Shown: positions 6,860-64,000 of the stretch, one piece after another
Layout of the letters: each line of letters begins with the position of its first letter
Position numbering within the stretch: position 1 is the stretch's first letter
Assembly (NCBI GenBank): GCA_963739065.1
Contig: CAVTYV010000004.1
Coordinates: 193,677 to 257,676 of the forward strand
DNA from: an uncultured Actinomycetes bacterium
GTDB taxonomy: Bacteria > Actinomycetota > Thermoleophilia > Gaiellales > Gaiellaceae
Direction: 5' to 3'
Length of the DNA stretch: 64,000 nucleotides
Program-made: the position numbers and the translations under genes
The notes under the pieces: model-generated
Seen by the model: the letters and a program-made list of their open reading frames with translations, nothing else
The model's database searches: none
What the model was told of the DNA's origin: nothing

Positions 6860-6867
6860 GCCCTCTT

Positions 6868-9890: not shown

Positions 9891-10103
9891 ATGAGCGCAG
9901 CTCTACCCTCTCGGCCCGCACCCTCCCCTCGCGGGCCAAACCCTCTCCCAGTGGAAGCCCTCCAAGAAGCTCTCGGAGGGCTTCTGCGCGAGAGGGAGCT
10001 CCTGCGCTTTTCGGGCGCAAAGCGCGCTCTCGAGCGGAACCGGCGAGAGATCGTCCGGATTCAGTGGGAGCTGACACACGCGCTCGTCCGCCGCTACCCC
10101 TAG
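9891..10103 (+). CDS. small hypothetical protein (70 aa)
   Basis: ATG ORF filling an otherwise empty gap. The C-terminal half is helical and charged (LRERELLRFSGAKRALERNRREIVRIQWEL). No family recognised. Confidence 0.3.
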   Translation: MSAALPSRPAPSPRGPNPLPVEALQEALGGLLRERELLRFSGAKRALERNRREIVRIQWELTHALVRRYP

Positions 10104-10118
10104 CTAACCTCAGCGGCC

Positions 10119-11300: not shown

Positions 11301-11611
11301 GCTACAAAAGCGCACGAGAATTCTTCGAAAGCCTCCCGGGGAGGGTGGACCCCGCGCGGGCCCGCGCCCTCGCCGGCTCCTATCGCTTCGACGTCGAGGG
11401 GGCGGGCAGCTGGCGGCTCGAGGCGGAGGGCGACCGACTTGTCGTCACTGAGAGTGACGCGCCGGCCGACTGCATCATCCGCGCCGACGAACGCACCTTC
11501 CTCCGCATCGCCGCGGGCGAGCAGAGCCCCATGGGCGCCTATATGACCGGCAAGGTCAAGGTGGAAGGCGACCTGGGGCTCGCTCTGAAGCTCCGCGACG
11601 TCTTCGGCTAG
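11297..11611 (+). CDS. SCP2 sterol-binding domain protein
   Basis: 104 aa ending in YMTGKVKVEGDLGLALKL, an SCP2-type C-terminus. The ATG overlaps the upstream stop (ATGA). Confidence 0.75.
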   Translation: MSYKSAREFFESLPGRVDPARARALAGSYRFDVEGAGSWRLEAEGDRLVVTESDAPADCIIRADERTFLRIAAGEQSPMGAYMTGKVKVEGDLGLALKLRDVFG

Positions 11612-15854: not shown

Positions 15855-17960
15855 ATGCCCCGCTGCCCCAACTGCCAGGAGGAAAATCCGGACGCGGCCC
15901 GGTTTTGCCTCGCGTGCGGAAAACCCCTCGAGGAGCGGGCGGAGGAGCCCCGGGACGAACGCAAGATCGTCACCGTCCTCTTCGTCGACCTCGTCGGCTT
16001 CACCGCGCGCGCCGAGACCCTGGATCCCGAGGATGTGCGGGAGATGCTGAACACGTACTACACCCGCCTACGTTCGGAGATCGAGCCCTTTGGCGGCGTC
16101 GTGGAGAAGTTCATCGGGGACGCGGTCATGGCGGTGTTCGGCGCTCCGACTGCGCACGGAGACGATCCCGAGCGGGCGGTCCGGGCCGCTCTCGCGGTGC
16201 GCGAGGCGGTCGCCGATCTGAACGAGGCCGATCCCGAGCTCCATCTCCAGATTCGGCTCGCGGCCAACACCGGTGAGGCGATCGTCTCGCTCGCAGCCAG
16301 GGCCGAGGCGGGCGAAGCGATGATCGCCGGTGACGTTGTCAACACCGCCTCCCGACTCCAGTCGGCGGCACCGACGAACGGCATCCTCGTCGGCGAGGAG
16401 ACCTATCGCGCCACGCGATCGTTGATCGAGTACGAGGAGGCCGACCCGGTCACCGTGAAGGGCAAACGGGAGCCGTGCAGCGTCTGGCTTGCTCAGGGAA
16501 CCAGGACGGCCCCCGGCGAACGCCTCATGAGCACCGTGCCGATGGTCGGGCGAACGAACGAGCTCTCCGTTCTTCACCGGATCTTCGAGAGCGTCACGTC
16601 AGAGCAGCGGCCGCACCTGGTCACCGTCCTCGGGGACGCGGGAATGGGGAAGACCCGTCTGACCGCCGAGTTCACGTCCCAGCTCGAGGACCGCGGCATC
16701 CGCGTCCTCCTGGGACGCTCGCATCCCTACGGCGCCAGCACGTTCTACGGGCCCTTCACACAGCACGTCAAGTCGCTGGCCGGCATCTTCGCGAGCGACG
16801 ATGTGCCCGCGGCGAGGGAAAAGCTGCGTGCGGCCATCGCGCAGCTGCTTCCTGGTGCCGGCTCCGAGGAGGTCGTCTCCCACCTGGAGCTCCTCATCGG
16901 CCTCGGCGCCGACGAGGAGGTCGCCGACCGCCAGACGCTGTTTCTCGCCGCCAGACGCTTTGTCGAAGGCCTCACGCGCGAGGGGCCTGCGGTGCTGGTG
17001 TTCGAGGACCTGCACTGGGCCGATTCGGGCACGCTCGACTTGCTGGAGATCCTCGCCTCGCGCGTCCACGGCGCGCCGTTGCTCCTGCTCGCCCTCGCGC
17101 GGCCGGTGATTCTGCTCGAGCGGCCCGGTTGGGGCGGCGGGCTGACCGCGTATACCGCTCTCACGCTCGAGGCCCTCGCCGAGGCGGATGCGGTCGAGCT
17201 GGCAGCCTCGCTCGCCGGCCCGGAAGGCCCGGCCGGCGATGCCATGCGGCTCGCCGCGGCCTCGGAAGGGAACCCGCTCTTCATCGAAGAGCTCGTCGCA
17301 TCGGTCCGCGAGCGACCGGAAAGCGTCTCAAGCCATTTGCCGACCACGATTCGCGGGCTTCTCTCGGCGCGGCTCGACACGCTCCCGCCGGCCGAGCGGC
17401 TCGTCCTTCTCGATGCGGCCGTCGTCGGCAGGGTGTTCTGGCGCGGCGCTCTCGAGCGGATCCTCGGCGACGGCACGGACCTCAGAGAGGTTCTCGACGC
17501 TCTCGAGGCGCGCGATCTGATCAGGCGTGAGCCGTTTTCGTGGATCGAGGGCGAGGAGCAGTTCGCCTTCAAGCATGTGATGATCCGGGACGCTGCGTAT
17601 GCGACCGTCTCGCGCGCCACGCGCAAGGAGCTCCACGCGGCCGTCGCCGAGTACCTCGAGGAGGCCACCGGGGACGCGGCAGCGACGGCGACCGCGCTCG
17701 CGGGCCACTGGCGCGAGGGGGGCCACCCCGACCGAGCCGTCGGCTACCTCGTGGTCGCCGGTGACCAGGCCGGCCGCGGCTGGGCGAAGGACGAGGCCGC
17801 GAGGCTCTATGGCGAGGCGCTCGAGCTCTTGCCGGAGGACGACGCCGAGCGCCGCCGGGAGCTCAGCCGCAAGCGGGCGCTCGCACTCGCGGCGTCAGCT
17901 CACGTCGAGGACGCTCTCAACCTCACCCAGGTCCGCGAGCGGGAGCCGACCGAGCGGTAG
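15855..17960 (+). CDS. zinc-ribbon / class III adenylate-guanylate cyclase / AAA(STAND) ATPase / TPR-like protein
   Basis: CPNCQ...CLACG zinc ribbon; cyclase homology motifs VTVLFVDLVGFT, KFIGDAVMAVFG and ANTGEA; P-loop GDAGMGKT; a helical-repeat C-terminus. No HTH was seen. Confidence 0.85.
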   Translation: MPRCPNCQEENPDAARFCLACGKPLEERAEEPRDERKIVTVLFVDLVGFTARAETLDPEDVREMLNTYYTRLRSEIEPFGGVVEKFIGDAVMAVFGAPTAHGDDPERAVRAALAVREAVADLNEADPELHLQIRLAANTGEAIVSLAARAEAGEAMIAGDVVNTASRLQSAAPTNGILVGEETYRATRSLIEYEEADPVTVKGKREPCSVWLAQGTRTAPGERLMSTVPMVGRTNELSVLHRIFESVTSEQRPHLVTVLGDAGMGKTRLTAEFTSQLEDRGIRVLLGRSHPYGASTFYGPFTQHVKSLAGIFASDDVPAAREKLRAAIAQLLPGAGSEEVVSHLELLIGLGADEEVADRQTLFLAARRFVEGLTREGPAVLVFEDLHWADSGTLDLLEILASRVHGAPLLLLALARPVILLERPGWGGGLTAYTALTLEALAEADAVELAASLAGPEGPAGDAMRLAAASEGNPLFIEELVASVRERPESVSSHLPTTIRGLLSARLDTLPPAERLVLLDAAVVGRVFWRGALERILGDGTDLREVLDALEARDLIRREPFSWIEGEEQFAFKHVMIRDAAYATVSRATRKELHAAVAEYLEEATGDAAATATALAGHWREGGHPDRAVGYLVVAGDQAGRGWAKDEAARLYGEALELLPEDDAERRRELSRKRALALAASAHVEDALNLTQVREREPTER

Positions 17961-17978
17961 GAGGCTCTTGACAAAACA

Positions 17979-18130
17979 TCGGCTGTTGCCGCCGGAGGCG
18001 CGCCGCTCGCCCCCAGGCTTCGTCCTCGGTCGCCCCCGTATCTAAAGTCGATACGAGGGCTCCCTGCGTCCTTGCCTGGGAACGACCGTCCCGTTCCGGC
18101 GACGAGCGACGTTCCGCCAAAAGCCTCCTA
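17979..18130 (-). repeat. copy A of a ~150 nt structured repeat element, read on the minus strand
   Basis: The reverse complement aligns with 39165-39314. My manual count gives 5 substitutions and 2 single-nt gaps. It starts at the TAG stop of the DUF4242 gene. Confidence 0.8.
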
Positions 18131-18412
18131 GACGGGCGGAAAGTCGTTCGGCGTGACGTCGCCGACGACTTCGTAGACCGCGAGGATCTGATGCATTCCC
18201 AGCGCGTCGGCGTGGCTGCGCACCGCATCCTCGCTCGGGGCGCCGTACACGCAGAACGTCTTGACCATGCCGCGCTCGTCCAGCGTCACGTGACTGTGGT
18301 GCCAGGTGATCTCCGGGAATTGGCCCTCGATCAAGGATCGCGACCGCCTGCCGATCGCTGGCATGTCTTCCTCTCCGACCTCGAACTGCCGCTCGACGAG
18401 GTACACCGGCAC
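18128..18412 (-). CDS. DUF4242-like small protein (paralogue of 6868-7119)
   Basis: 94 aa (MPVYLVERQF...ITWHHSHVTLDERGMVKTFCVYGAPSEDAV). Same family impression as 6868-7119. Confidence 0.65.
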   Translation of the reverse strand: MPVYLVERQFEVGEEDMPAIGRRSRSLIEGQFPEITWHHSHVTLDERGMVKTFCVYGAPSEDAVRSHADALGMHQILAVYEVVGDVTPNDFPPV

Positions 18413-38411: not shown

Positions 38412-38468
38412 CAATCCTCACCTTTTCGCGTGATCCACTCGGGGTCGCCGGAAGCCGATTCCTACGTC

Positions 38469-39167
38469 ATGCGGCGCGGGCTCGCGCTCCTGCTCGTCAC
38501 GGCCGTCGCGGCGGTGGCCGCGGGCTGCTCCGGCGCGGACGCGCAAGAGGCCCAGACGCTGCTCGCGGAGTCGAACGCCGCCTTCGCCCAGGTCCGCTCC
38601 GCCACCTTCACCGCTCGCATCGCGATGACCGGGGGTCCGCAGGAATTCGACATGACGATGAGCGGCGGCGGCTACGCCAAAGGCCGACACGCCGGCGAGT
38701 TCTACGTCGTCGCCACCTCGGACACGCTCCCGTTCCGGGAGCTGACCGCGATCAGCAAATCCGGCCGAGTCGCGATGACCGTCGACGGCACATCGCTCGG
38801 CAACATTCCGGCGCCGCAGCAGACGGACAACCCCATCCAGCTCGTCGACCTCTCCCAGTACGTGAAGGACGTCGAGGTCGAACACGGGAAGCTCATCGAC
38901 GGCGAGTCCATGGCGAAGATCTCGGGTGTGATCGACACGGCCGGCCTCGCCAAGGGCGCACTGGCCGACGTCACGGGGATGGGGGAGAGCGGCATCGATC
39001 TCTCGAAGGCGCTCGGAGACACGCGCGTCGTCTTCTACATCTCCGAGTCGACGCACCTGCCCATGCGCGGGCTCGTAGACGTGCCGATCGAGGTCGCGGG
39101 GCAGAAGATCGAGATGCACCTCGACTTCGCGTACACGTCGTACGACACCAAGATCGACTTTCCCTAG
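38469..39167 (+). CDS. lipoprotein (family not identified)
   Basis: ATG 38469 MRRGLALLLVTAVAAVAAGCSG carries a lipobox. 232 aa. Its last codons and TAG stop lie at the edge of repeat copy B. Confidence 0.65.
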   Translation: MRRGLALLLVTAVAAVAAGCSGADAQEAQTLLAESNAAFAQVRSATFTARIAMTGGPQEFDMTMSGGGYAKGRHAGEFYVVATSDTLPFRELTAISKSGRVAMTVDGTSLGNIPAPQQTDNPIQLVDLSQYVKDVEVEHGKLIDGESMAKISGVIDTAGLAKGALADVTGMGESGIDLSKALGDTRVVFYISESTHLPMRGLVDVPIEVAGQKIEMHLDFAYTSYDTKIDFP

Positions 39168-39314
39168 GAGGGTTTGGCGGAACGTCGCTCGCCGCCGGGA
39201 CGAGACGGTCGTTCCCAGGCAAGGACGCAGGGAGCCCTCGTATCGACGTTAGATACGGGGGCGACCGAGGACGAAGCCTGGGGGCGAGCGGCGCGCCTCC
39301 GGCGGCACAGCCGA
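39165..39314 (+). repeat. copy B of the ~150 nt structured repeat element
   Basis: See copy A. It lies between the lipoprotein stop and the acyl-CoA dehydrogenase start (39377). Confidence 0.8.
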
Positions 39315-39376
39315 GTTTCGTCATGCCCTCTTACGAGACGGGAGGGCGGGCGGCCGCCTCTATACTCGCCGCCGGG

Positions 39377-40528
39377 ATGGACTTCGAGCTCTCGCCCGAA
39401 CAGCTCGAGATTCGGGGGCTTGCGCGGGACTTCGCCGCGGCAGAGATCGAGCCCCACGCGGCCGACTGGGATCGGGAGCATCGCTTCCCGAGCGACCTAC
39501 TCGTGCAACTTGCCGAGCTGGGCCTCATGGGCGTCTGCGTTCCAGAGGAGCTCGGTGGGGCCGGCGCCGACTTTCTCTCCTACATCCTCGTGCTCGAGGA
39601 GCTTTCGCGCGGCGACGCCGGCATCGGCGTCACGGTCGCCGTCCACACCAGCGCCGGAACCCTTCCGATCGTCGCGCACGGAACTCCCGAGCAGCAGGCC
39701 GAACACGTCCCTCCACTCGCGCGTGGAGAGAAGCTCGGAGCCTTCGCGCTGACAGAGCCGGAAGCCGGCTCCGACGCCGCGTCGCTGCGCACCCGCGCCG
39801 AGGCCGACGGCGACGGGTGGCTGATCACCGGCACCAAGCGCTGGATAACGAACGGCGGCGGGCGGGGGACGTTCGTCCTCTTCGCCCGCACCGACGCCGG
39901 CATCTCGTGCTTCCTCGTCGACGGCGGCGCCGATGGTGTCGAGATCGCCCGCGAGGAGGAGAAGCTCGGTTTGAACTCGAGCTCCACCGTGGATCTCGCC
40001 CTCGACGGCGTTCGCGTCGGCCCGGCCCAACTGTTGGGCAAGGACGGCAAGGGGTTCACGATCGCCATGCAGACCCTGGACGGTGGGCGCATCGGCATCG
40101 CGGCCCAGGCACTCGGCATCGCCCAGGCGGCCTACGAGGTGGCGCGGTCGTACGCGCTCGAGCGCCGCCAGTTCGGCAAGCGCATCGCCGAGTTCCAGGC
40201 GATCCAGTGGAAGCTCGCCGACATGGCGACTGAGATCGAGGCGGCTCGGGGGCTCGTCTACCGGGCTGCCGCGCTCCGGGACGCCGGCGAGCCCCATGCC
40301 GAAGCCGGGGCGATGGCAAAGCTCTTCGCCTCGGGTGTCGCGCGCCGCCAGACGGCCGAGGCGATCCAGGTGCTCGGCGGCGCGGGGTACACAAAGGATT
40401 TCCCGGTGGAGCGCTACTACCGCGACGCCAAGATCACGGAGATCTATGAGGGGACAAGCGAGATCCAGCGCCTCGTCATCGCGCGCTCGATCCTCGGGCT
40501 GAAAGGCCGTGAGAAGGTAACCGCGTGA
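39377..40528 (+). CDS. acyl-CoA dehydrogenase (short/butyryl-CoA type)
   Basis: MDFELSPEQLEIRGLARDFA, FALTEPEAGSDAAS and YRDAKITEIYEGTSEIQRLVIAR. ATG 39377 is preferred over the much longer track ORF. Confidence 0.9.
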   Translation: MDFELSPEQLEIRGLARDFAAAEIEPHAADWDREHRFPSDLLVQLAELGLMGVCVPEELGGAGADFLSYILVLEELSRGDAGIGVTVAVHTSAGTLPIVAHGTPEQQAEHVPPLARGEKLGAFALTEPEAGSDAASLRTRAEADGDGWLITGTKRWITNGGGRGTFVLFARTDAGISCFLVDGGADGVEIAREEEKLGLNSSSTVDLALDGVRVGPAQLLGKDGKGFTIAMQTLDGGRIGIAAQALGIAQAAYEVARSYALERRQFGKRIAEFQAIQWKLADMATEIEAARGLVYRAAALRDAGEPHAEAGAMAKLFASGVARRQTAEAIQVLGGAGYTKDFPVERYYRDAKITEIYEGTSEIQRLVIARSILGLKGREKVTA

Positions 40529-41822: not shown

Positions 41823-44529
41823 CTAGCGCCCGCGTGACGCGGCGGAAGCGACTGGCTCACCGTGTGCATGAGGCGCTGATCCCAGAACAGGATCGGGCTC
41901 GACGTTTCCCGCCGTGACGTTGCGGGGGAGACGCGGCTTGCGGGCGCGCAGCGCCATTGCGCCGGCCGCGACGAACGCGCCGCCGAGGAGGGTGAGACCG
42001 AGCCAGTCGGCGCAACGGTGAGGAGCTGTCTTCGCCCGCCGTGAAGCTCTGCGGCTGCACTTCGCCCGAGCCGCCCGAGCTTTCCGTTCCATCCGACCCG
42101 GTCGCCGGAGTCAGCGGGGTGCCGCCGGTCGTGCCTCCGGTCGTTCCTCCGGTCGTGGCCCGAGGTGGGGCCGGGAGTCGGTGCACCGCCGTTGTAGGAA
42201 GGCCCCGGATAGGTCGGCCCACCAGAGGTGGTCCCTGATCCGAACCCGCCGCCGGCCGGCGGCGGAGGAGTCGTGCCGCCCCTGCTGGCGGGCCCGCGGG
42301 AAACCGTTAGGCCGATCGCGGCACCCTTCAGCGCCACGCCCGAGCGCGAGCTCAGGACGAGCCCGGCGCCGACCGTTGCGGAGTAGGAGTAGCGCACCGC
42401 GCCGGTGCGAAGTCCGCGGGCGGTCAGGCGAGCCTTCGCCGCAGCCGGGGTCAGCTTCTGCACGGCGGGGACGATCACGAGCGCGCGGGTCTTGGGCCCG
42501 ACGTTGCCGGCCGCGTCGCGCGCCGCGAGCTGGAAGGCCCGGGAATCCGAGGTCTTGAAGGCGCCCATGTTGGCGGAGCGCTTGGATCCCGCCAAGGTCT
42601 TGACCACGGATCCGTTCGCGTAGACGAGGTACGCGTCGACGACGCCGCTGTTGTCCGTGGCCGCCTTCCACTTGAGGACGAGGTGGCGGTTCCGGTTCGT
42701 GCCGGAGAACTTCCGAGGCTTGGTGGGCACCCTGACGTCCTTGAGGAGGCTGAAGGAGGAGAGGTGCTTCGTGAGGATGTGGACGTTCGACCCGGACTTG
42801 TAGAAGCCGTCGACCCAGCCGCTCGGGAGGCTCGTGCCGCTCGGGATGCGGGCGATCGTCCGCCAGGCACCGCTTTCGAACGTGGCGGGCACGACGTTCG
42901 CTGCGCCCGGGATGGTCAGGTCGAGGGCCTTCGAGAAGGTGTGCACCGCAGTGCCCGCGAGCGCCCAATGCGCCGAGACGTCGTAGATGTCGCCCGCAGT
43001 CTCGAACCCGCCCGGCACGGTCGCCGGCGGCCGCGGGTCGATCCGGATGACGAGCCAGTCGCCGCTCGGTGCGCCGCTCCACGCTCCCGACGGGACGTTG
43101 ATCTGGCCCTCGCCGCTCGTCGCCGTCAGCGACGTCAGCCGACTCCAGGGAACGAGTTCTTCTCGATCCACGGGTAATCGGCCGCGGCGAGGCTCCAGAC
43201 CGTGAAGTGGACTGCAATCGCATGCGCGGTTGCCCGCCGCATCCTCGAGCTCGCCGGTGAACGTGTGCGGCCCGTCCGCGAAGGCGGCGGTGTAGGTGGC
43301 GGTCCCGCCGAGCGAGGAGCGGGGCCGGGGCGGCCGAGCCGTCGAGGGTCGCATTGGCGATGCCGGCAGAGGTTCTCGTCCGCGACGATGGCCAGGGACC
43401 CGGCGGCGGCCACGAGCTCGCCGTCGGCGGGCACAGAGGAGGTCAGCGAGGGAGCCGTGTTGTCGACCGTGACCGTTCGCACGGGCGAGTTCGCGGGGTT
43501 GCCCGCGTTGTCGGTCGCCCGGGCACGGAGGTCGTAGCTGCCGTCGGCAACCCCGGTCGTGTTCCAGCTCGTGGCGATCGTCGTCCAGATGCCGGCGCCC
43601 GCAGGCGAGCGCTGGACGATGAGGCTGGCGACTCCAGAGCCGCTGCCGTCGTCTGCCGAGGGGCTCAGGGTCACGGTGCCGCGCAGGGGCGAGCCGGGGT
43701 CGGCCAGAGAGACGTTCGGCGCGGTCGCGTCGATCGTCCACGCGGCGCTGTCGGGCGTCGCGTCCGTGTTGGCCGAGCCGTCGGTGGCGCGAACGTCGAA
43801 GGTGTGGGCGCCGTCCGCGAGGCCGGTGAAGGTGGCAGGGCTCGAGCAGGAGGCGAACGCCGCGCCGTCCACCGAGCACTCGAAGGTGCTGCCGGACTCG
43901 TCGGAGGTGAACGCGAAGGTCGCATCCGGGACTCGCCGAGAGGGCGGGCGGGCCCGACGTGATCGTCGTCTCGGGCGGGTCGAGGTCGGCGGCGTTGTTG
44001 ACCGCTGCTCCAGTCGAACTGGACGCTCACCGCGGAGCCCTGGTACGCGTTCTCCGACGCCGGGGCCGGCGTCGGGGAAGAAGACGCGGAACTCGTAGAC
44101 GCGGGCCGCTCCGGCCGTCAGCGTTCCGAGCGCGACCGGCGTGAGCGCGTCGATCTTGCCGTTGTAGACGACGACTGGGGAGCCGGGGGCCGTCACGTCG
44201 CGAATGCGTAGGTCGAGCTCACCGGAGAGGACGCCGCCGCCGCCGCCCGGCGTGTCGACCAGGTTGGAAGTGGAGAGCGAGAGGTCGCCTTCGAGCGTGC
44301 CGGTGTTCCCGAGCGTCACGGTGTCGGTGACGGAGTCGCCCGGCCGCATCCCGCCGAGCGAGAGGATGGCGGCGCCTTCCTTGTCGTTGGAGAGGGTCAG
44401 CGAGCCGCCGGGGCCCGCAGCGAGCTCGAGCTGTGCGCGAGAAGGCTGCTGGCCGCCCGAGAGGACGGCCAGGCAGATCGCGACGATCACGACGGCGAGG
44501 ACTTCGAGTCTGAGGAAGATGCGTCGCAT
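41823..44529 (-). pseudogene. giant surface protein 2: TasA-like N-domain + Ig-like + FN3-like + PASTA-like + C-terminal anchor, many frame breaks
   Basis: ATG 44529 (MRRIFLRLEVLAVVIVAICLAV) lies 2 nt after the upstream TAG. The N-domain parallels the TasA-like protein at 47575-48135 (GMRPGDSVTDTVTLGNTGTLEG, YEFRVFFPDAG, SVQFDW). It is followed by PPETTITSGP...TFECSVDGAAF...HTFDVRATD and one 96-aa Ig-like unit. Then come FN3-like LVLKWKAATDNSG, PASTA-like LTARGLRTGAV...GLTVSRGP, a G/T/P linker, and a hydrophobic segment plus RARKPR. By my reading at least eight frame changes are needed (near 44050, 44000, 43950, four in 43400-43140, and 42190-42030). Confidence 0.6.
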
Positions 44530-44531
44530 TC

Positions 44532-46884
44532 CTAGAACTCCGCGTCCACCGGAGGGGAGGTCTCGAGGCAGGTCACCGTCGTGATCGCGTTGCCAGCGAT
44601 GTCCGTGAGGGCCGCTGCGACCGGCCAGCTCGGTCTGTCCCGTGGTGCCGGCCTGGGTGAACTGGGGCTTGTCGGGGGCGCCGAGCGTCAGCGTGACCGT
44701 CGTCCCGCTCTGAGCGATCGTCGAGTTCGAGAAGACGACGGCCTTACCGTTCTGGATGTAGCCCGTGCCGCCGAGCGTGATGAACCCGTTGACGAGCGTC
44801 GCGCCGGTGATGGAGAGGTGGTTGCCGGTGTCCATCGTCACCGTCACGTTCTGCGTGCCGGTGCCGTTCCAGCCGGCGACGATCGTGCCGGGGGCAATCT
44901 GCTCGCTGAAGGTGAAGACGAGGGTGTCGCCCTGCTGCGGCTGCCCGGGCGTCGTGCCGGTGACGCCGGTCTGGACGTTCGTCGCCGTCGGCGCCGTGTT
45001 GTCGACGACTCGGTTCGAGACTGTCGAGGAGTTGGTGGCGTTGCCGGCGTTGTCGGTCGTGACCGCGCGGAGGTCGTAGCCGCCGTCGGAGACGCCGGTC
45101 GTGTTCCACGAGCAGGAGTAGGGGCTGGTGGCGTCGGTGCAGATCGTCGTCCACGTCGATGTGCCGGTCGGCGCGCGCTGGATGGCGACGTTGAGGACGC
45201 CGGAGCCGGCGTCCGTGCCCGTCGCGTTGAGCGTGACGGTCTGGCGGAGCGGCGAGCCGGGGTCGGTCAGGCCGGCCGTCGGCGCCGTGTTGTCGACGCG
45301 GCGGTTCGTCGACCGTGGAGGAGGTCGTCGTGTTCCCCGCGTTGTCCGTGGTAATAGCGCGGAGGTCATAGAGGCCGTCGGTGACTCGCGGTCGTGTCCA
45401 AGGCGCAGCAGTAGGGCGACGTGGCGTCGGTGCAGATGTCAGTCCACGTTCCGGCGCCGGCCGGCGAGCGCTGCATCTTCACGCTGGCGACCCCGGAGCC
45501 GCCGTCGGTACCCGTGGCGCCGACAGGTGACGGTCGGATGCAGAGGCGTGCCCGGATCCGTGAGGCCGGCGGTGGGAGCCGTGTTATCGACGCGCCGGTT
45601 CGTCACGGTCGACGAGGTCGTCGTCTTGGCCACGTTGTCCGTCGCGATCGCGCGCAGGTCGTAGAGCCCGTCGGAGACGGCCGTCGTGTTCCACGAGCAC
45701 TGGAAGGGCGAAGTCGTGTCGGTGCAGATGTCCGTCCAGGTGCCCGCACCGGCGGGGGAGCGCTGGATCTTGACGTTCGCGACGCCGGAGCCTGCGCCGT
45801 CGCCCGCTGTCGCGTCGACGGTGATCGTGCCCTTGAGGTACTGGCCTGGATCCGTCACGGAGACGGTCGGAGCGGTGTTGTCGACGATCGCGCCCGAGTA
45901 GACGGTCGAGTTGGCCGTGTTGCCCGCGTTGTCCGTGGCGACCGAGCGGAAGTCGTACTGGCCGTCGGCGAGCCCGGTCGTGTCGTAGGAGCACGAGTAG
46001 GGCGACGTCGTATCGGAGCACATGTCGCTCCAGGTGTTCAGCCCGGTCGGGGAGGACTGGAACTTGAGGGAGGCGACGCCCGAGCCGCCGTCGCTCGCCG
46101 TGCCGTCGAAGCTCTTGTTCCCGGTGATGGGCGAGCCCGGATTCGTCATCGTCGCCGTCGGGGCGGTGTTATCGACGCGCCGGTTGGTGACGGTCGAGGA
46201 GTTCGTCGAGTTGCCCGCGTTGTCGGTCGAGACGGAGCGGAGGTCGTAGAGCCCGTCGGAGACGGCCGTCGTGTCCCACGAGCACGAGTAGGGGGAGCTC
46301 GCATCGGTGCAGATGTCAGTCCAGGTTCCGGCGCCTGCCGGCGAGCGCTGCACCTTCACGTTGGCAACGCCCGATCCGCCGTCCGTGCCGGTCGCGCTGA
46401 CACTGACCGTTCCCTTGAGGGGCGTGCCCGGGTCGGTGATTCCGGCCGTGGGTGCCGTGTTGTCGACGCGGCGGTTCGTCACCGCCGTCGAGGTTGCGGA
46501 GCCGCCGGCGTCGTTCTGGACGAAGGCCCGGAAGTCGTACAGCCCGTCCGTGACGGTCGTGCTGTCCCAGGAGCAGGAGTAGGGCGACGTCGAGTCGGTG
46601 CACGCCGTCGTCCAGGTGCCCGCGCCCGCTGGGGACTTCTGAATCGTCACGAGCGTGATCGAGGAGCCGTCCCCTCCGTCCGAGGCTGTGGCCTGGAGCG
46701 TGGCCGTCGCGTGGAGGTTCGTTCCCGGATCCGTCATCGTCGCGCTGAGGTTGAAGGCGTTCGAAGCCGTGAAGCTGTTCCCCGAATTGGCGCTGGCCGC
46801 GGTGAACGCGGCCCCGGAGAACGTGACGCCAGCCACGACGAGAGCCGCGACCGCGAGGAACGATGCGAGGGCGCGAAGCCTCAC
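44532..46884 (-). pseudogene. giant surface protein 1: SipW-type signal peptide + six tandem ~96-aa Ig-like repeats + C-terminal domain, frame breaks in the 3' half
   Basis: The N-terminus MRLRALASFLAVAALVVAGVTFSGAAFTAASANSGNSFTA is TasA-class signal-like. Repeats fit VDNTAPTxxxTDPGxPLxGTVxxxATGxDxGSGVANVKxQRSPAGAGTWTDICTDxxSPYSCSWxTTxVxDGLYDLRxxxTDNAGN. The gene is intact from 46884 to about 45560. About four frame changes are then needed at 45300-45530 and one near 44600, before TAG 44532-44534. Confidence 0.65.
45006..46749 (-). repeat. tandem array of six ~288-bp coding repeats (Ig-like modules)
   Basis: Protein-level periodicity is seen in the track ORFs 45439-46884 and 43135-45369. The units are divergent at nucleotide level but share conserved blocks. 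Confidence 0.7.
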
Positions 46885-47552
46885 GAACGAGCCTCCGGAG
46901 CCGTCGCAGCCTTGCGCACGTCACGGCGGAAGCCGACGAGCACTGCGAAGGCGATCAGGAGTGCCGGCAGACCGATCAGCACCATCCGGACCTGGCGGAT
47001 CGCCAGGGCGGAGAGCACGTAGCCGACGTAGGGAACATGGAAAGCGACGCGAGCCTGTGTGGCTCCGTCGAGGGTGAACGTCCAGGGATCGGCCGACTCG
47101 TTGGCGTCGCCCTTCGTGCGAAGGGCCTGCCGGCCGAGCTGATCGGAGCCGATCCAGACGATCCGGTGCGTGATGCGGCCGCTCGGGCCGGAGCCCGCAG
47201 GCGGCGTGTAGGTGATGGCGTCGCCGACGCGGAGGTCGGAGACGGGAACCACCTTGTCGAAGACGACTGAGCCGCGGTCGTACGTGCCCGTCATCGAGCC
47301 GCTCGTGATGACGTACCGCTGGTAGCCGAGGAGTCCCGGCAGGAGCATGAGCCCCGCAAGACCCAGGCAGGCCGCACAGAGGGCGGTCGCCAGAGCCGTG
47401 CCGAGCCGCTTCCGCGGGTTCCTCGGCTCCCAGCGGTAGTGATAGTCGTACGCCGTCTTTGTCGTCATCGACGTCTCCTCTTCAGGCTTCGGAGTGGTGA
47501 GCACCGGTTGTCCGGTGGAGGCGGGGCCGCCGAATTGCGGCCCCGACGCCAT
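46881..47552 (-). CDS. sipW: signal peptidase I, SipW/archaeal-ER type (S26B)
   Basis: ITSGSMTGTYDRGSVVF (Ser box), ITHRIV (His box), TKGDAN, an N-terminal TM and an extra C-terminal TM. It overlaps the downstream gene by 4 nt. Confidence 0.8.
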   Translation of the reverse strand: MASGPQFGGPASTGQPVLTTPKPEEETSMTTKTAYDYHYRWEPRNPRKRLGTALATALCAACLGLAGLMLLPGLLGYQRYVITSGSMTGTYDRGSVVFDKVVPVSDLRVGDAITYTPPAGSGPSGRITHRIVWIGSDQLGRQALRTKGDANESADPWTFTLDGATQARVAFHVPYVGYVLSALAIRQVRMVLIGLPALLIAFAVLVGFRRDVRKAATAPEARS

Positions 47553-47574
47553 TGCTCAATGGTCCGATCCGCCC

Positions 47575-48135
47575 TTAGGAGGCGTTCCAGTCGAACTGGA
47601 CGCTCGAGCTGTCGCCCTGGTAGGCATTGGTCGCGCTCGAGTCGAAGGTCACCGCGAACTCATAGCGGTGCTTCTCGCTCGCCACGAACGTGCCGAGAGC
47701 CGTCGAGCCCATCGCTGCGATCGTCCCGGTGTACTTGACCGGGTCGCCGACATCGCAGGTCGGCGCGCCGCTCGAGAAGTCGCCGCAGTCCTTCACGACG
47801 AGGTTGAGCTTGGCCGACATGGGGTTGGCTCCGTCAGAGTCGACGATGCTGGAGCGCGAGAGCACGAAGGCGCCGGAGAGCGAGCCCGAGTTCTGGACGT
47901 CAACCGTGCCAGTCGCCGAGTCGCCGGGCTTCATGTTGCTCGCTGTGAGGACCGCGAGGCCCTCCTTCGAGTTGAGGATCGAGAGCGTCCCGGCCGCGAA
48001 CGTGTTGCTCGGGTTCGCGGAAGTCGCCGTGAAGCTCGCGCTCGATCCGACTGCCACCGCGACTGCCGCGATCAGCGCCGAAAGGGCGCCCAGCGCGCGC
48101 AGCGGATGGCGTGCTACGAAGTCGAACGTGTGCAT
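47575..48135 (-). CDS. TasA/camelysin-like exported protein (186 aa)
   Basis: ATG 48135 is preceded by the SD AAAGGAAG. The signal region ALIAAVAVAVGSSASFTATSANPSNTFAAGTL is of SipW-cognate type. Body motifs are NMKPGDSATGTVDVQNSGSL, YEFAVTF and SSVQFDW. Confidence 0.75.
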   Translation of the reverse strand: MHTFDFVARHPLRALGALSALIAAVAVAVGSSASFTATSANPSNTFAAGTLSILNSKEGLAVLTASNMKPGDSATGTVDVQNSGSLSGAFVLSRSSIVDSDGANPMSAKLNLVVKDCGDFSSGAPTCDVGDPVKYTGTIAAMGSTALGTFVASEKHRYEFAVTFDSSATNAYQGDSSSVQFDWNAS

Positions 48136-60152: not shown

Positions 60153-63100
60153 GTGCGGACCGCAGCGGCCCAAACCAACCGCCTCTGGCGGCTGACCCGA
60201 ACAACCCTCTGGCAGCGCTCCGCGCTCGCCGCCGGAATCATCGTCCTGGGCTTGATTCAGCTTGCCGGCTCGCAAGCGGCAGTCAGCGCGACGCCGGATG
60301 AGGTCGGGCAGTGGAGCGCGCCGGTCGCCTGGCCGCTCGTCGCCGTCCACATGTCCCTCGAACCCGACGGCCGGGTGTTCACGCTCGACGGGTTCGACGC
60401 AGCGCTGAACTCCGAACGGCTTTGGAACCCCGTCAACGGAACGTTCACCGCGGTTCCGTACAGCCGGAATCTCTTCTGCGCCGGCCACGTCCAGCTCGCG
60501 GACGGCCGCACGCTCATCGTGGGCGGCCACATCACAGCGAACTCGGGTCTCGCGGACACGACGATCTTCGATTCGCGGACGAACACGTACTTCCGCGGGC
60601 GCGACATGTCGGTGGGCCGCTGGTATCCGACCGCGACGGTGCTGCCCGACGGCCGCGTTCTGGCCTTCTCGGGCGACAACATCGTCCAGGACCGGCCCGG
60701 CGCAACGCATCCCTTCTCGGACGCCTCGGTTGACTCGCTCCCCTCTGTCTACGACCCGAAGACGAACACCTGGACGGACCTGACGGCTGCGACGCTGACG
60801 TCCCCGCTCTACCCATTCATGTTCGTGCTGTCGGACGGTCGCGTCTTCGACGCAGGCCCCGATACGACGACTCGCATCCTCGACGTCGGGACGTCCACGT
60901 GGACGACGGTGGGAACCAGCCCGATCGACGGCATGAGCGCGGTCATGTACCGGCCCAACAAGATCATGAAGGCCGGCACATGGGCCGACCCGGACTGGAA
61001 CGGAGCGCTCGCGTACAACGCCGCAGGCGGCACGGCGGTCATCGACATGAGCGCTCCCACGCCTACGTGGCGCTCGACCGCGCCGATGGCGTTCGGGCGC
61101 TCGTACCACAACCTCACCCTGCTTCCCGACGGAACCGTCCTCGCGAGCGGCGGCATGTCCGGGTCGGATGGGACCGATCTCACCAAGGCCGTGCTTCCGG
61201 CCGAGATCTGGGATCCGGACACGGAGACGTGGACGACGGTCGCCTCGCTCCAGAACGGCCGGGAGTACCACTCGACGGCCCTCCTCCTGCTCGACGGCCG
61301 CGTGCTCATGGCAGGCGGCGGCGCTCTGCCGGGCCGGGCCACCGACCAGAAGAACGCGGAGATCTACTCGCCTTCGTACCTGTTCAAGGGAGCGCGCCCG
61401 ACGATCTCGTCGGCTCCCTTGTCGGCCACCTACGGCTCTTCCTTCGACATCCAGACTCCGGACGCCGCCCAGATCACGAAGGTCTCCCTGGTCAGGTCGC
61501 CTTCGGTGACGCACGGGTTCGACCAGAACCAGCGCTTCCAGTTCCTCAACTTCACTCAAGGCGCCGGGAAGATCACCGTGCAGGCGCCGGCGAATGCGAA
61601 TCTGGCGCCGCCGGGCGACTACATGCTGTTCATCCTCAACGGCTCGAAGGTCCCCTCCACCGGGGTGATGATGTCCGTCTCCGCGCCGGTCGACTCGGCG
61701 CCGCCGACGGCTCCCTCGAACCTCCAGGCGGCCAGCGCGCCGGGGCAGGCGTCGCTCACGTGGACCGCGGCGACCGACGACGTGGGCGTCGCCCATTACA
61801 ACGTGCACCGCGGCACTACGAGCGGGTTCACCCCTACGGCCGCGAACCGGATCGCGCAGCCGGTCGGCACGAACTACACGGATGCCAGCCTCAGCGCGGG
61901 CACCTACTTCTACAAGGTCACCGCGGAGGACGTGGCCGGCAACGTCGGTCCGGCGTCGAACGAGGCGAGTGCGACGATCGTCGGCGGGCCGGCGATCGCT
62001 TCGTACGGGTTCGAGGAGGGGACCGGTTCGACCACGGTCGACATATCCGGCAACAGCAACAACGGGACGATCTCCAACGCGACGTGGTCCACAGCCGGGA
62101 AATTCGGAAAGGCGCTCTCCTTCAACGGCACGAACGCGTCCGTCTCGATCCCCGACTCGAGCTTGCTGGACCTCACGACGGGAATGACGATCGAAGGCTG
62201 GGTCAACCCGGCCGCGAGCGGCGGCTTCCGGACGATGATGGTGAAGGAGCGGCCCGGCGACCTCGTGTACGGCCTCTACTCGAGCTCGGACACGAACCGC
62301 CCGCAGTCGCAGGTCACGGTCGGGGGAACGGCGCGGCTTTTGAACGCGACCGCCACGATCCCCTCGGGCTCCTGGACCCATCTTGCGGCTACGTACGACG
62401 GGACGACGCAGCGTCTCTACGTCAACGGGACGCAGGTCTCGACGCTCGCCATTTCGGGGACGATTCTCACCTCGAACTCGCCGCTGAAGATCGGCGGAAA
62501 CTCGATCTGGGGCGAGTGGTTCGCCGGGTTGATCGACGAGGTGCGCGTGTACAACCGCGCGCTCACTGCAACGGAGATCCAGGCCGACATGAATGCTCCG
62601 GTCAGCCCACCGGACCCGCTGCCCCCGAGCGCGCCGGGGACGTTGACGGCAACCGGCGGGCTGGGGCAGGTCAACCTGAGCTGGGGAGCCGCGACCGACA
62701 ACCTCGGCGTCGCGAGGTACAACGTCCACCGCTCGACGACTCCGGGATTTACGCCGAGCGCGGGTAACCGGATCGCCCAGCCGACGGGGACGAGCTACAC
62801 CGACTCCGGTCTGGCAGCCGGCACCTACTACTACAAGGTCACTGCTGAAGACGCCGCCGGGAACGTGGGCCCGGTCTCGAATGAGGCGAGCGCGGCGGCG
62901 ACGGCCGATACGACGCCGCCGACGGCGCCGACCAACCTCCTGGCGACGGGAGCACCCCAACAGGTGAGCCTCACATGGACGGCGGCCACCGACGCCGGGG
63001 GAATCGCCCGCTACAACGTCCACCGGAGCACGACGAGCGGCTTCACGCCTTCGGCGGGGAACCGGATCGCTCAGCCCACGGGGACGAGCTACACCGACTC

Positions 63101-64000
63101 CGGTCTGGCAGCCGGCACCTACTACTACAAGGTCACTGCTGAAGACGGCGCGGGCAATGTCGGGCCCGGTTCGAACGAGGCCAGCGCCACCGTGCCCAAC
63201 GGGCCGCCGCCCGGGCTCGTCGCCGCCTACGGCATGGATGCCGGATCCGGCACGACGCTCGCCGACCAGTCGGGCAACGGCAACAACGGCACGCTCGCGA
63301 ACGTGAGCTGGGCCGGGCCCACGGCGGGCAAGTTCGGTAACGCCCTCTCCTTCAACGGGACGAACGCCTCGGTGAGCATCCCCAGCTCGGCCTCGCTCGC
63401 CCTCACGACAGGGATGACGCTCGAGGCCTGGGTGCGCCCGACGACGCTCTCGAACGGGGACTGGAACACGGTCATCTTCCGCGAGCGGCCCGGCTACTAC
63501 GCGGACGCCCTCTATGCCAACACGGGTGCGAACCGTCCCTCGGGCAACATCTACACGAACCTCGACTACGACCTGCGCGGGACGGCCCAGCTACCGCTCG
63601 CCACCTGGACGCACCTCGCCGCCACCTACGACGGCACCGTGTTCGCGCTCTACGTGAACGGGACGCAGGCCGCGACGGTCTTCGCGAGCGGCTCGATCAT
63701 CACCACCACGGGGGCGCTCAAGATCGGCGGCAACGCCATCTGGGGCGAGAACTTCAACGGACTGATCGATGAGGTGCGCATCTACAACCGCGCTCTCACC
63801 GTGGGTCAGATCCAGAGCGACATGAACGCGGCGATCACGAACCCCGATTCGACGCCTCCCTCTGCGCCCGGCACGCTGACGGCGACAGGCGGACTTACGT
63901 CTGCGCAGCTCACTTGGGGCACGGCTACCGACAACGTCGGTGTCGCGCGCTACAACGTCCACCGGTCGACGACCCCGGGCTTCACGCCATCGGCGGCGAA
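60153..64000 (+). CDS. giant secreted galactose/glyoxal-oxidase-like protein with FN3 and LamG (concanavalin-like) modules, 3' end outside the window
   Basis: This frame is open from 60117 to the window end; it is not in the track, presumably because it has no stop. GTG 60153 gives a signal-like N-terminus (SALAAGIIVLGLIQLAGSQAAVSA). It is followed by kelch-type propeller motifs (LFCAGHVQLADGRTLIVGG, VGRWYPTATVLPDGRVL, REYHSTALLLLDGRV). A DUF1929-like end (GDYMLFILNG) follows, then FN3-LamG-FN3-FN3-LamG-FN3. Confidence 0.8.
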   Translation, partial: MRTAAAQTNRLWRLTRTTLWQRSALAAGIIVLGLIQLAGSQAAVSATPDEVGQWSAPVAWPLVAVHMSLEPDGRVFTLDGFDAALNSERLWNPVNGTFTAVPYSRNLFCAGHVQLADGRTLIVGGHITANSGLADTTIFDSRTNTYFRGRDMSVGRWYPTATVLPDGRVLAFSGDNIVQDRPGATHPFSDASVDSLPSVYDPKTNTWTDLTAATLTSPLYPFMFVLSDGRVFDAGPDTTTRILDVGTSTWTTVGTSPIDGMSAVMYRPNKIMKAGTWADPDWNGALAYNAAGGTAVIDMSAPTPTWRSTAPMAFGRSYHNLTLLPDGTVLASGGMSGSDGTDLTKAVLPAEIWDPDTETWTTVASLQNGREYHSTALLLLDGRVLMAGGGALPGRATDQKNAEIYSPSYLFKGARPTISSAPLSATYGSSFDIQTPDAAQITKVSLVRSPSVTHGFDQNQRFQFLNFTQGAGKITVQAPANANLAPPGDYMLFILNGSKVPSTGVMMSVSAPVDSAPPTAPSNLQAASAPGQASLTWTAATDDVGVAHYNVHRGTTSGFTPTAANRIAQPVGTNYTDASLSAGTYFYKVTAEDVAGNVGPASNEASATIVGGPAIASYGFEEGTGSTTVDISGNSNNGTISNATWSTAGKFGKALSFNGTNASVSIPDSSLLDLTTGMTIEGWVNPAASGGFRTMMVKERPGDLVYGLYSSSDTNRPQSQVTVGGTARLLNATATIPSGSWTHLAATYDGTTQRLYVNGTQVSTLAISGTILTSNSPLKIGGNSIWGEWFAGLIDEVRVYNRALTATEIQADMNAPVSPPDPLPPSAPGTLTATGGLGQVNLSWGAATDNLGVARYNVHRSTTPGFTPSAGNRIAQPTGTSYTDSGLAAGTYYYKVTAEDAAGNVGPVSNEASAAATADTTPPTAPTNLLATGAPQQVSLTWTAATDAGGIARYNVHRSTTSGFTPSAGNRIAQPTGTSYTDSGLAAGTYYYKVTAEDGAGNVGPGSNEASATVPNGPPPGLVAAYGMDAGSGTTLADQSGNGNNGTLANVSWAGPTAGKFGNALSFNGTNASVSIPSSASLALTTGMTLEAWVRPTTLSNGDWNTVIFRERPGYYADALYANTGANRPSGNIYTNLDYDLRGTAQLPLATWTHLAATYDGTVFALYVNGTQAATVFASGSIITTTGALKIGGNAIWGENFNGLIDEVRIYNRALTVGQIQSDMNAAITNPDSTPPSAPGTLTATGGLTSAQLTWGTATDNVGVARYNVHRSTTPGFTPSAA
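62783..62852 (+). repeat. 70-nt block identical to 63078-63147 (inside adjacent FN3 modules)
   Basis: ACGGGGACGAGCTACACCGACTCCGGTCTGGCAGCCGGCACCTACTACTACAAGGTCACTGCTGAAGACG is present at both positions. Confidence 0.85.
63078..63147 (+). repeat. second copy of the identical 70-nt block
   Basis: See 62783-62852. The flanks are similar but diverged. Confidence 0.85.

Follow-up and report, generated by a model that had tools for sequence, protein, structure and literature searches.

A TA-flanked foldback repeat of Gaiellales-type Actinomycetota with the features of a MITE-like mobile element

Two inverted copies and their neighbouring genes

The window analysed here is a 64,000-nt stretch of genomic DNA from an uncultured Gaiellaceae bacterium (GCA_963739065.1, contig CAVTYV010000004.1). 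It carries two copies of one repeat, 21 kb apart and in opposite orientations: copy A lies between two convergent genes, and copy B separates a 245-aa ORF from an acyl-CoA dehydrogenase gene (acd). The genes and elements at the two places are as follows.

15855-17960 (+): cyclase/AAA-ATPase gene, 701 aa, Pfam Guanylate_cyc and AAA_16
17958-17960 (+): TAG stop of this convergent gene, formed on the opposite strand by the final three bases of copy A
17958-18130 (-): copy A, full element, 173 nt
18128-18412 (-): SCO4226-like gene, 94 aa, Pfam PF14026
18128-18130 (-): TAG stop of the SCO4226-like gene, the first three bases of copy A
38430-39167 (+): upstream 245-aa ORF, called a lipoprotein in an earlier sequence-only reading; no Pfam match
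39165-39167 (+): TAG stop at the end of this ORF, the left TA plus the first G of the element
39165-39333 (+): copy B, full element, 169 nt, TA + GGAGGG...CCCTCT + TA; bounds from the comparison of the two copies and the family alignment
39377-40528 (+): acyl-CoA dehydrogenase gene (Pfam Acyl-CoA_dh_N, _M and _1), beginning 43 nt past the end of copy B

The sequence-only reading had reported two repeat copies with five differences between them. The copies are real, aligning over 135 nt at 97% identity (17987-18121 versus 39173-39307, inverted relative to each other), and the differences lie where it had placed them. The unit of 39165-39314 that it gave is too short, as both copies run TAGGAGG...CCTCYTA (39165-39333 and 18130-17958) and the full element in copy B reaches 39333. 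Its distance of 62 nt to the acd start codon (ATG at 39377) is right when counted from that shorter end; from the true end of the element the distance is 43 nt. No intrinsic terminator was found in 39000-39500, where no T-run follows the hairpin, and a search of the lipoprotein-acd spacer for a promoter consensus gave none.

Because the element starts with G, ends with C and sits next to TA, each outward junction reads TAG, and an insertion in or beside a stop codon thereby leaves or creates a stop for the genes on both sides. When copy B and one TA are removed in silico, the 245-aa ORF loses its stop and fuses in frame to acd, giving 643 aa. The SCO4226-like protein would be 113 aa long if copy A were absent, and the stop of the cyclase/AAA-ATPase gene survives removal of copy A plus one TA.

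A dispersed family and its insertion sites

Scanning genomes with a pattern from the apex of the repeat returned 9 loci in 5 Gaiellaceae/Actinomycetota MAGs, and scanning metagenomes with a 3'-arm pattern returned at least 120 loci; since an exact 22-mer of the 3' arm served to pick the metagenome copies, diversity is under-sampled and this arm looks artificially invariant. An nhmmer search gave 117 hits, which yielded at least 84 unique full-length copies at at least 65 independent sites, the flanks of which are unrelated to one another. In all, more than 100 copies beyond the two in the window come from Gaiellaceae/Actinomycetota MAGs and soil metagenomes, and the family is abundant in this uncultured soil lineage of Gaiellales-type Actinomycetota. 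It appears to be undescribed, with no account of it in the Gaiellales literature searched. The window matched none of the Rfam 15 covariance models at gathering thresholds, and a permissive Rfam search produced, at best, plant miRNA-precursor hairpins and the sodF sRNA, far under the cut-offs. A search of a plasmid collection gave only one chance match inside a coding gene, and a scan of viral contigs gave no match to the element.

Copies share the constant ends C-TA-GGAGGGYTTGGCGG...CAAGCCCTCC-TA, and the element itself can be written GGAGGGYTTGGCGGAACG...GTTTCGTCAAGCCCTCC with a TA on either side. Most are about 170, 180 or 187 nt long, modular variants span 137-205 nt, and internal deletions have left derivatives of 66-95 nt. 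Modules are also shuffled: the apical hairpin, module H1, is swapped for a different module H2 in other size classes. Copies at non-orthologous sites share a mean identity of 91%, against 77-82% for syntenic host DNA. Across the divergent subfamily (L122, L111) conservation is higher in the interior than at the termini, the opposite of the usual MITE pattern.

At 61 independent sites the left flank has C in 53, T in 53 and A in 56, and the bases directly after CCTCC on the right are T in 56 and A in 49. TA is found at both ends in 80-92% of copies, and the termini are symmetric (GGAGGG/CCCTCC). The target is asymmetric: C precedes the left TA in 87%, and G follows the right TA in 17 of the 61 (28%). 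Sites with TTAG at the left keep CCTA at the right.

Empty sites were sought by aligning the joined flanks of filled copies across related contigs. Four clean filled/empty pairs were obtained (L048/L056, L030/L095, L088/L036, and L028 versus both L083 and the window), and each empty site is a single CTAG. The site in the window and the corresponding TA of copy B are:

5586-5589 (no strand): unoccupied CTAG target; the element is present there in related contigs L028 and L042
39332-39333 (+): right TA of copy B, the second copy of the duplicated target TA, from the flank logo (61 sites) and the single TA in empty sites

Around 5586 the window reads GGTC-TAG-CTGACG, the filled site reads GGTC-TA-[element]-TA-ACTGACG, and the joined L028 flanks align across. 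Over positions 1-11,600 the window shows synteny with L042 (about 80% identity), and L042 has three insertions that are absent from the window. Filled and empty sites together show that the target is a TA, as a rule the one in C-TA-G, and that insertion doubles it. Formally this outcome cannot be told apart from that of an element which has a terminal TA of its own and goes in 3' of CTA. A duplication of 3 or 4 nt (CTA or CTAG, as in IS5-like insertion) is disfavoured, the fourth base being single, and 2 nt fits better than 4 because the right G is rare and left TTAG sites retain the right CCTA. In this respect the element departs from MITEPsy1, an IS5-family-derived element of Pseudomonas syringae, which makes a 4-nt duplication, whereas the Gaiellales element has a single fourth base, with G after the right TA in only 28%. 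It resembles MITEPsy1 in its termini, which begin GGAGGG here and GGAAGG there, and in its target, MITEPsy1 inserting at CTAG or YTAA (PMC3189936).

The window holds 33 CTAG where 182 are expected, and 657 TA where 1519 are expected. With 69% G+C, this genome has few TA and CTAG, and those it has cluster at gene ends, which explains why copies come to lie at stop codons and between convergent genes. Most copies are at gene 3' ends rather than before any particular gene class, and their orientation relative to neighbouring genes is unbiased. By flank gene calls made with a crude GC3-frame rule, a co-directional upstream gene stops at the element's TAG in 20 of 30 such sites, and a convergent downstream gene ends 0-7 nt from the 3' end of the element in 34 of 41. 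Many genes take their working stop codon from the element, which matters for the annotation of these MAGs.

One long hairpin and its strand asymmetry

Copy B folds as one hairpin at -110 kcal/mol, and copy A at -118.9 kcal/mol on the (-) strand and -80.0 on the opposite strand. Strong folding of 39165-39314 was borne out by a fold check (z = -5.0, far beyond chance). For the family, the consensus RNA folds at -124.5 kcal/mol in the sense and -85.5 in the antisense direction. The consensus hairpin has 63 pairs with 97.8% of cells paired, whereas slid controls reach only 40-49%. Its parts in copy B are:

39167-39184 (+): left terminal inverted repeat GGAGGGTTTGGCGGAACG, near-invariant in 84 copies; pairs with the right end (helix 1)
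39214-39220 (+): CCCAGGC, 5' half of stem 2, pairs with 39276-39282; in the consensus fold
39235-39261 (+): apical hairpin CCCTCGTATC-GACGTTA-GATACGGGGG, module H1, helix 4 of the consensus
39276-39282 (+): GCCTGGG, 3' half of stem 2; in the consensus fold
39316-39331 (+): right terminal inverted repeat GTTTCGTCATGCCCTC, family consensus GTTTCGTCAAGCCCTCC; G·U pairs with the left end

Across the family, 21 of the 63 pairs show double-sided changes, against 4.8 in shuffles (0 of 500 shuffles did as well); when the set is conservatively cut down to 32 independent copies, 8 pairs do so, against 2.0 in shuffles (again 0 of 500). In helix 1, GGAGGGYTTGGCGGAACG pairs with CGTTTCGTCAAGCCCTCC over 24 pairs, 96.7% paired. 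Helix 4 is 99.4% paired and has four pairs with double changes. In stem 2, alignment columns 56/120 form a G:C pair in 24 sequences and a C:G pair in 10. The 10-bp apical hairpin with its variable base in the loop and the stem CCCAGGC/GCCTGGG, both picked out from the sequence earlier, are thus present in the copy and in the family consensus fold, where they belong to the hairpin of the whole element.

Conserved base pairing had also been claimed for a first stem-loop. Covariation is significant along the family-wide long hairpin, but this stem-loop does not share in it. It is absent from the minimum-energy fold, a single long hairpin in which the 3' arm takes up the 5' bases of this stem-loop, and across 39 family members it shows no covariation: 284 of 500 shuffles are at least as paired and 494 of 500 equal it in double changes. 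The pair that looked like a compensatory double change, U:A in copy A and C:G in copy B, is U:G in 36 of 39 members, one step from each copy; the two copies have therefore each changed once, independently, from an ancestral U·G. A third change, read as a U:G wobble becoming U:A, concerns a U:R pair of the same stem-loop that is unpaired in 22 of 39. In the supported long-hairpin fold one of the five changes turns a wobble into a Watson-Crick pair (U:G to C:G), another, in copy A, is disruptive (G:C to A:C), and the remaining three fall at unpaired positions. An apparently compensatory pair thus dissolves once the whole family is compared.

Mobile hairpin repeats, REPINs among them, often show compensatory changes too (PMC3116915), which therefore do not identify a dedicated RNA gene. 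What the family shows counts against the earlier structured-RNA reading, as the sequence is a mobile repeat, MITE- or REP-like, dispersed over many sites. The compensatory-looking changes between the two copies came from a mobile foldback element and not from a regulatory RNA, which corrects a tempting misreading.

Pairing is better on one strand than on the other. The consensus hairpin contains nine G·U pairs and zero A·C pairs, and of the variant types found among copies 21 are G·U and 6 are A·C (p = 0.006). Variants common to at least two sites account for 9 G·U and 1 A·C; singleton variants (12 against 5) show no significant bias (p = 0.14). The sense strand folds better in 84 of 84 collected copies, by a median of 32 kcal/mol. 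Split by sense or antisense gene context, the G·U:A·C ratios are 11:1 versus 17:7 and 9:7, suggestive figures that are too few to use. One-strand pairing points to selection on a single-stranded form, either RNA or ssDNA. Such a G·U strand bias is unexpected for a purely double-stranded cut-and-paste element. Together with the asymmetric target, it offers a handle on whether such repeats spread via single-stranded intermediates.

A probable non-autonomous element and the alternatives

Dispersed copies, constant TA-flanked ends, empty sites and differences within syntenic regions together make it probable that both copies are a non-autonomous transposable element, a MITE-like palindromic repeat of Gaiellales-type Actinomycetota. 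Hallmarks of bacterial MITEs are a length of 100-200 bp, terminal inverted repeats, a target duplication, TA termini and a long stem-loop from pairing of the 5' and 3' ends (PMC2229807). Among the MITEs with TA termini are RUP of Streptococcus pneumoniae (linked to IS630-Spn1), Correia/NEMIS of Neisseria and ERIC/IRU of enterobacteria. Like these, the Gaiellales element is 100-200 bp long and non-coding, has terminal inverted repeats with TA at both ends and a target duplication, is dispersed between genes, yields a transcript with one long stem-loop and has size variants made by internal deletion (PMC2229807). It differs from them in several ways: no sequence similarity to them was detected, and its host belongs to another phylum, a Thermoleophilia-type lineage of Actinomycetota; it is complementary over almost its full length, its arms differing by G·U-compatible transitions only; with G at one end and C at the other it restores TAG on either strand, and copies often supply stops; and it is asymmetric in its target, with C before the left TA only, and no partner IS was found for it in the loci searched.

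The element would presumably be moved by a transposase supplied in trans. An enzyme of the IS630/Tc1-mariner group, for which TA duplication is typical, is a candidate, and an IS5-type enzyme targeting CTAG is an alternative; the asymmetric target, with C on the left and seldom G on the right, is unexplained by classical IS630-type insertion. The arms are extended inverted repeats, through which a single strand folds into one long hairpin, part of which the sequence-only reading had detected. Pairing is kept along the propagating lineages and is much better on one strand, and the single-stranded form, be it transcript or ssDNA, may matter for the spread of the element or for its tolerance. Where the hairpin is co-transcribed, as for copy B behind the 245-aa ORF, it would probably act generically at the RNA level, and might keep 3' exonucleases out, make transcription pause or end, be cut by RNase III or hinder ribosomes at the stop codon.

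A search of 844 kb of collected loci plus the window for the ends of a partner IS turned up no orphan terminal repeats. Among 808 called ORFs no recurrent non-syntenic ORF emerged, and no ORF was multi-copy in the 844 kb. Two genes enclosed by inverted copies were considered as transposases and rejected: one (L061) reads as an XdhC-type accessory protein, judged from its translation and not from a database match, and the other (L033) is an unrelated 200-aa ORF.

It is unlikely that the family is chiefly a host-beneficial RNA, its hairpin kept as a bidirectional terminator, 3'-end stabiliser or insulator and its mobility a matter of origin only. Such effects have been reported for ERIC, Correia and REP elements (PMC2229807); the copies at gene 3' ends and between convergent genes, a hairpin that is very stable on either strand (-124.5 and -85.5 kcal/mol) and a mean identity at non-orthologous sites (91%) above that of syntenic host DNA (77-82%) would all suit this role. 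However, no U-tract or terminator-like site was found, orthologous sites in related genomes lack the element, which is therefore dispensable there, and the scarcity of TA and CTAG away from gene ends accounts passively for its location. As singleton variants lack a significant G·U bias (12 versus 5, p = 0.14), selection in place is not demonstrated.

A further proposal, which we regard as doubtful, is that the element is a strand-specific hairpin replicator of the Thermoleophilia and no ordinary cut-and-paste MITE. Its spread would depend on a single-stranded intermediate (ssDNA handled by an HUH/RAYT-like enzyme, or a transcript), its conserved core module AAGGACGCAGGGAGC...GCGACCGAGGAC would survive exchange of the terminal arms, and its TAG-rebuilding termini, evolved to this end, would open up to it the stop codons of convergent genes that overlap or are tightly packed.

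Movement as ssDNA in the manner of REPINs or PATEs is improbable. Here an HUH tyrosine transposase (RAYT or IS200/IS605 TnpA) would use the hairpin as its substrate and insert the element 3' of CTA with no true duplication, the right TA being the element's own; this predicts the same empty site as the duplication model. Strand-specific pairing (9 G·T/U versus 0 A·C in the consensus, 9 versus 1 among lineage variants) and an asymmetric logo with C-T-A conserved at the left only would fit. Like REPINs, the Gaiellales element is an extragenic, well-conserved hairpin repeat with compensatory changes and a hairpin predicted in ssDNA or mRNA (PMC3116915), and its 5' arm also folds alone, recalling the alternative 'clover' configuration proposed for REPINs (PMC3116915). 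REPINs, however, consist of two short REPs and a spacer, leave the target unduplicated and go together with a single-copy RAYT gene, whereas the element is some 170 nt long, paired right to its ends and perfectly symmetric at its termini (GGAGGG/CCCTCC), with TA at both ends in 80-92%. In the collected loci no gene between or adjoining copies resembles a RAYT, and both orientations occur a few kb apart in 5 of 8 multi-copy loci, which argues against strict lagging-strand targeting. The MITE-like element moved in trans is the reading that we prefer.

The sequence-only reading had suggested a cis-regulatory or processing role, which would make the element an RNA dedicated to the lipoprotein-acd operon. 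Copy B does lie on the sense strand, 43 nt upstream of acd and behind the 245-aa ORF, in a region that folds strongly. A role specific to acd is nevertheless very improbable, as the element occurs at at least 65 unrelated sites with no common gene class, in both orientations without bias and mostly at gene 3' ends; copy A, between convergent genes, has nothing downstream to regulate, the first stem-loop is unsupported and no Rfam family matches. That the repeat is a protein-coding sequence or small ORF is scarcely credible: stop-free frames cross many copies, as expected at 70% G+C, but element lengths are spread over every class modulo 3 (21, 42 and 21 copies), none of the frames stays open throughout the family, inward-reading genes meet a stop codon at either end and the copies differ by indels. 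Integron attC sites, which follow each cassette ORF in tandem arrays next to an integrase, were likewise rejected, the copies being single, 21 kb apart and in opposite orientations in the window, and scattered at unrelated loci.

The flanks of one rearrangement (L010 versus L083) do not fit a simple inversion between two copies. Several copies were found at contig ends; the element breaks assemblies and marks rearrangement breakpoints.

The repeat and its place in the window

An inverted pair at 17987-18121 and 39173-39307 (135 nt, 97% complementary) lies in the window, and the region that a sequence-only reading had proposed as a structured RNA is one of its arms. The five differences which that reading saw between the two copies, A and B, are all where it placed them. 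When wider stretches are aligned, the similarity extends outward beyond the 135-nt core at lower identity, and both copies begin with TAGGAGG and end with CCTC(C/T)TA. In copy A and copy B alike, the element opens with the TAG stop codon of the upstream gene.

Copies of the element in the window and their neighbouring genes
39165-39333, + strand: copy B, full element (169 nt)
18130-17958, - strand: copy A, full element (173 nt)
38430-39167: 245-aa ORF upstream of copy B; its stop is copy B's first three bases
18128-18412: 94-aa SCO4226-like ORF upstream of copy A; its stop is copy A's first three bases
15855-17960: convergent 701-aa cyclase/AAA-ATPase gene; its TAG stop is copy A's last three bases, on the other strand
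Start 39377: acyl-CoA dehydrogenase gene (acd), 43 nt past the end of copy B

Between copy B and acd, TATACT at 39361-39366 (11-16 nt 5' of the acd ATG) could be the -10 box of a short-leader or leaderless transcript; a sigma-70 consensus scan reported no promoter in that region. The window also holds an inverted match, 7338-7512 / 40151-40325 (175 nt, 74%), whose second arm lies within acd and whose first probably belongs to a second paralogue of acyl-CoA dehydrogenase, encoded on the opposite strand. Tandem arrays at 43458-47628 and 61683-64000, the latter continuing past the window end, are built of 291-294-nt units with 63-83% identity (families D1-D10), probably repeated ~97-aa domains of large proteins.

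A search with the apical hairpin as an exact pattern located nine loci in five MAGs named Gaiellaceae or Actinomycetota, and a scan with a 22-mer from the 3' arm found at least 120 metagenome loci, a set in which the 3' arm appears invariant and distant subfamilies are under-sampled because it was ascertained by that exact 22-mer. Applied to all fetched DNA, nhmmer gave 117 strong hits; they comprise 84 unique copies of full length with flanks of 40 nt, and grouping by orthologous flanks leaves 65 independent sites. The flanks are unrelated between sites, and the ends are nearly always C-TA-GGAGGG(T/C)TTGGCGGAACGTC ... GTTTCGTCAAGCCCTCC-TA. The interior is modular: slot 1 holds a TCGTATC hairpin (H1) or a GAACGCGGATGCGTT module (H2), and slot 2 holds GAGGACACAGCCTCGG (S) or H2. 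Shorter derivatives of 66-95 nt retain the arms only, and some copies sit at contig ends; like the modular interior, both point to a transposable family. Nothing comparable was found in Rfam, a plasmid collection or viral contigs.

Two loci, L122:1847-2015 (-) and L111:6095-6264 (-), form a divergent subfamily that keeps the interior (GAGGC.AGGACGCAGGGAGCGC...GCGACCGAGGACG); its outer arms differ from those of the family yet stay complementary (AGAGCTCGTTTCAGAATGGG / CTCATTTTGGAACGAGCTCT), so the core is better conserved than the termini. The apical hairpin is flanked by a direct repeat (AGGACGCAG at 39222-39230 and AGGACGAAG, in the family consensus AGGACACAG, at 39267-39275), whose halves oppose each other as a symmetric internal loop, at the same positions in the consensus, and whose 5' half is nearly invariant family-wide.

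Fold and covariation

The interval first singled out folds at -85.4 kcal/mol (z = -5.0 versus shuffles). At full length, copies A and B each form one hairpin, with sense-strand energies of -118.9 and -110.0 kcal/mol and complementary-strand energies of -80.0 and -83.7 kcal/mol, respectively, a gap that arises because many pairs are G·U. For 39 copies of the 170-nt class (alignment A2), RNAalifold predicted a long hairpin of 63 pairs. Its pairing was also scored in a conservative subset of 32 independent copies that excludes the divergent subfamily, copy A and orthologous duplicates. When the 3' partners were slid by 1-3 columns as a control, just 40-49% of long-hairpin cells paired.

Pairing in the long hairpin and in stem-loop 1 (SL1) of the sequence-only reading, shuffle means in brackets
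Long hairpin, 39 copies: paired cells 97.8% (94.8%); double-change pairs 21 (4.8); observed values reached in 0/500 shuffles for both measures
Long hairpin, 32 independent copies: paired cells 97.9% (96.7%); double-change pairs 8 (2.0); reached in 0/500 shuffles for both
SL1, 39 copies: paired cells 91.2% (91.2%); double-change pairs 1 (1.2); reached in 284/500 and 494/500 shuffles

The clearest covariation is in the previously proposed stem 2, with G:C in 24 sequences and C:G in 10. SL1 is absent from the minimum-energy structure, where its 5' bases pair with 3' bases instead; in 22 of the 39 sequences the bases of its U:R pair do not pair, and its Y and R bases have other partners in the supported fold. 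The Y:R pair is U:G in 36 of 39 sequences, so what looked like a compensatory double change amounts to two independent one-step departures from U·G. Folded alone, the 5' arm forms SL1 locally (-20.8 kcal/mol), which may be a transient or alternative conformation. The sequence feature and its conserved pairing are real; the fold and regulatory role proposed for it are unsupported.

Filled and empty sites

When the two flanks of each copy were joined and searched against all loci, contigs emerged in which they are contiguous. Only four empty sites are clean (L048 vs L056; L030 vs L095; L088 vs L036/L031; L028 vs L083 and vs window 5586-5589): C-TA-G stands once in the empty site, against C-TA-[GGAGG...CCTCC(T)]-TA-(G/A) in the filled one. 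Over its first 11.6 kb the window shares synteny with L042 and L083 (77-82% identity), and L042 has three copies at intergenic points, with none at the matching window points. The combined features of the element are the defining set of bacterial MITEs: 100-200 bp, terminal inverted repeats, target duplication, TA termini and a long stem-loop by end-to-end pairing (PMC2229807). The family is new; the type of mobile repeat is already known. A MITE mobilised in trans, with TA duplication, is the best supported interpretation. IS630/Tc1-mariner elements are the usual source of TA duplications, and a transposase of that family would be the likely mobiliser; the fetched DNA yielded no partner transposase. 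An alternative enzyme is that of an IS5-type element, with GGAAGG-like ends and CTAG targets (PMC3189936), whose 3-4-nt duplications fit the element more poorly.

At 61 independent sites the left flank is C in 53, T in 53 and A in 56, and the right flank is T in 56 and A in 49, followed by C/A/G/T in 19/20/17/5. The element's first base is G and its last is C, so that TAG is read at each junction on the strand entering the element. By crude, heuristic GC3-based gene calls, the stop of a co-directional upstream gene is the element's TAG at 20 of 30 sites, and a convergent downstream gene ends 0-7 nt from the element's 3' end at 34 of 41. In the window (69% G+C), TA occurs 657 times versus 1519 expected and CTAG 33 times versus 182, a five-fold under-representation, and called stop codons overlap 10 of these CTAGs; target availability and tolerance thus account for the element's position at gene ends.

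Deleting copy A and one TA in silico retains the cyclase TAG and extends the 94-aa ORF to 113 aa. At copy B the same deletion takes away the stop, and the 245-aa ORF continues in frame into acd (643 aa); the base after the right TA, now C (39334), was therefore presumably G or A before insertion. The right junctions of related copies, for example in L030 and L028, hold a mismatch: G follows TA in 4/4 empty sites (CTAG) versus 17/61 (28%) filled sites. TACTAG, as if CTA were repeated, occurs at 7/63 right junctions (TACTACTAG in L009). By the GC3 rule, 51 ORFs are called in the window, and TAG ends more of them than any other stop (26 TAG, 18 TGA, 7 TAA); at 69% G+C, TGA would have been expected to dominate.

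Strand asymmetry and alternative origins

The sense strand folds better in 84/84 copies (gap median 32, minimum 17 kcal/mol), and the gap persists with DNA parameters (-56.3 vs -41.9 kcal/mol). Nine G·U pairs and no A·C pair occur in the family consensus. At Watson-Crick positions in 33 independent copies, variants creating G·U outnumber those creating A·C by 21 types to 6 (p = 0.006); those common to at least two sites number 9 versus 1, and singletons 12 versus 5, a non-significant difference. C-to-T changes are not in excess at unpaired positions (4 C>T vs 6 G>A column-types). With 16 convergent, 9 sense-tandem and 12 antisense-tandem sites, copies have no preferred orientation relative to genes. 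We infer a filter on one strand's single-stranded form, RNA or ssDNA, that acts mainly as lineages propagate and less on the transcript of each resident copy. In REPINs, pairing is likewise maintained by compensatory changes (PMC3116915), and compensation alone is therefore no sign of an RNA gene.

This strand bias, with the conservation of C-T-A on the left only, makes a REPIN-like single-strand mechanism the main rival to a trans-mobilised MITE; against it stand the termini, which are symmetric and flanked by TA, neighbouring copies that lie in mixed orientations, and the lack of any RAYT in the fetched DNA. The hairpin may benefit the host as a terminator or stabiliser; it lacks the U-tract of a terminator, and related genomes have the same sites without the element. 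A dedicated regulator of acd, the role first suggested, is contradicted by the element's distribution.

Between L010:9397-14081 and L083:8991-13465, in contigs 92% identical, blocks beside copies are rearranged with breakpoints at the copies, two inverted copies in L010 standing in place of one in L083; the flanks did not fit a simple inversion. In L061:1735-3058 and L011:3092-4382, a 311-aa gene, XdhC-like judging by its sequence alone, lies between two inverted copies whose 5' ends face it. At one of the two sites, L061 and L093 carry a 180-nt copy, of which L011 has a 137-nt form with an internal deletion.
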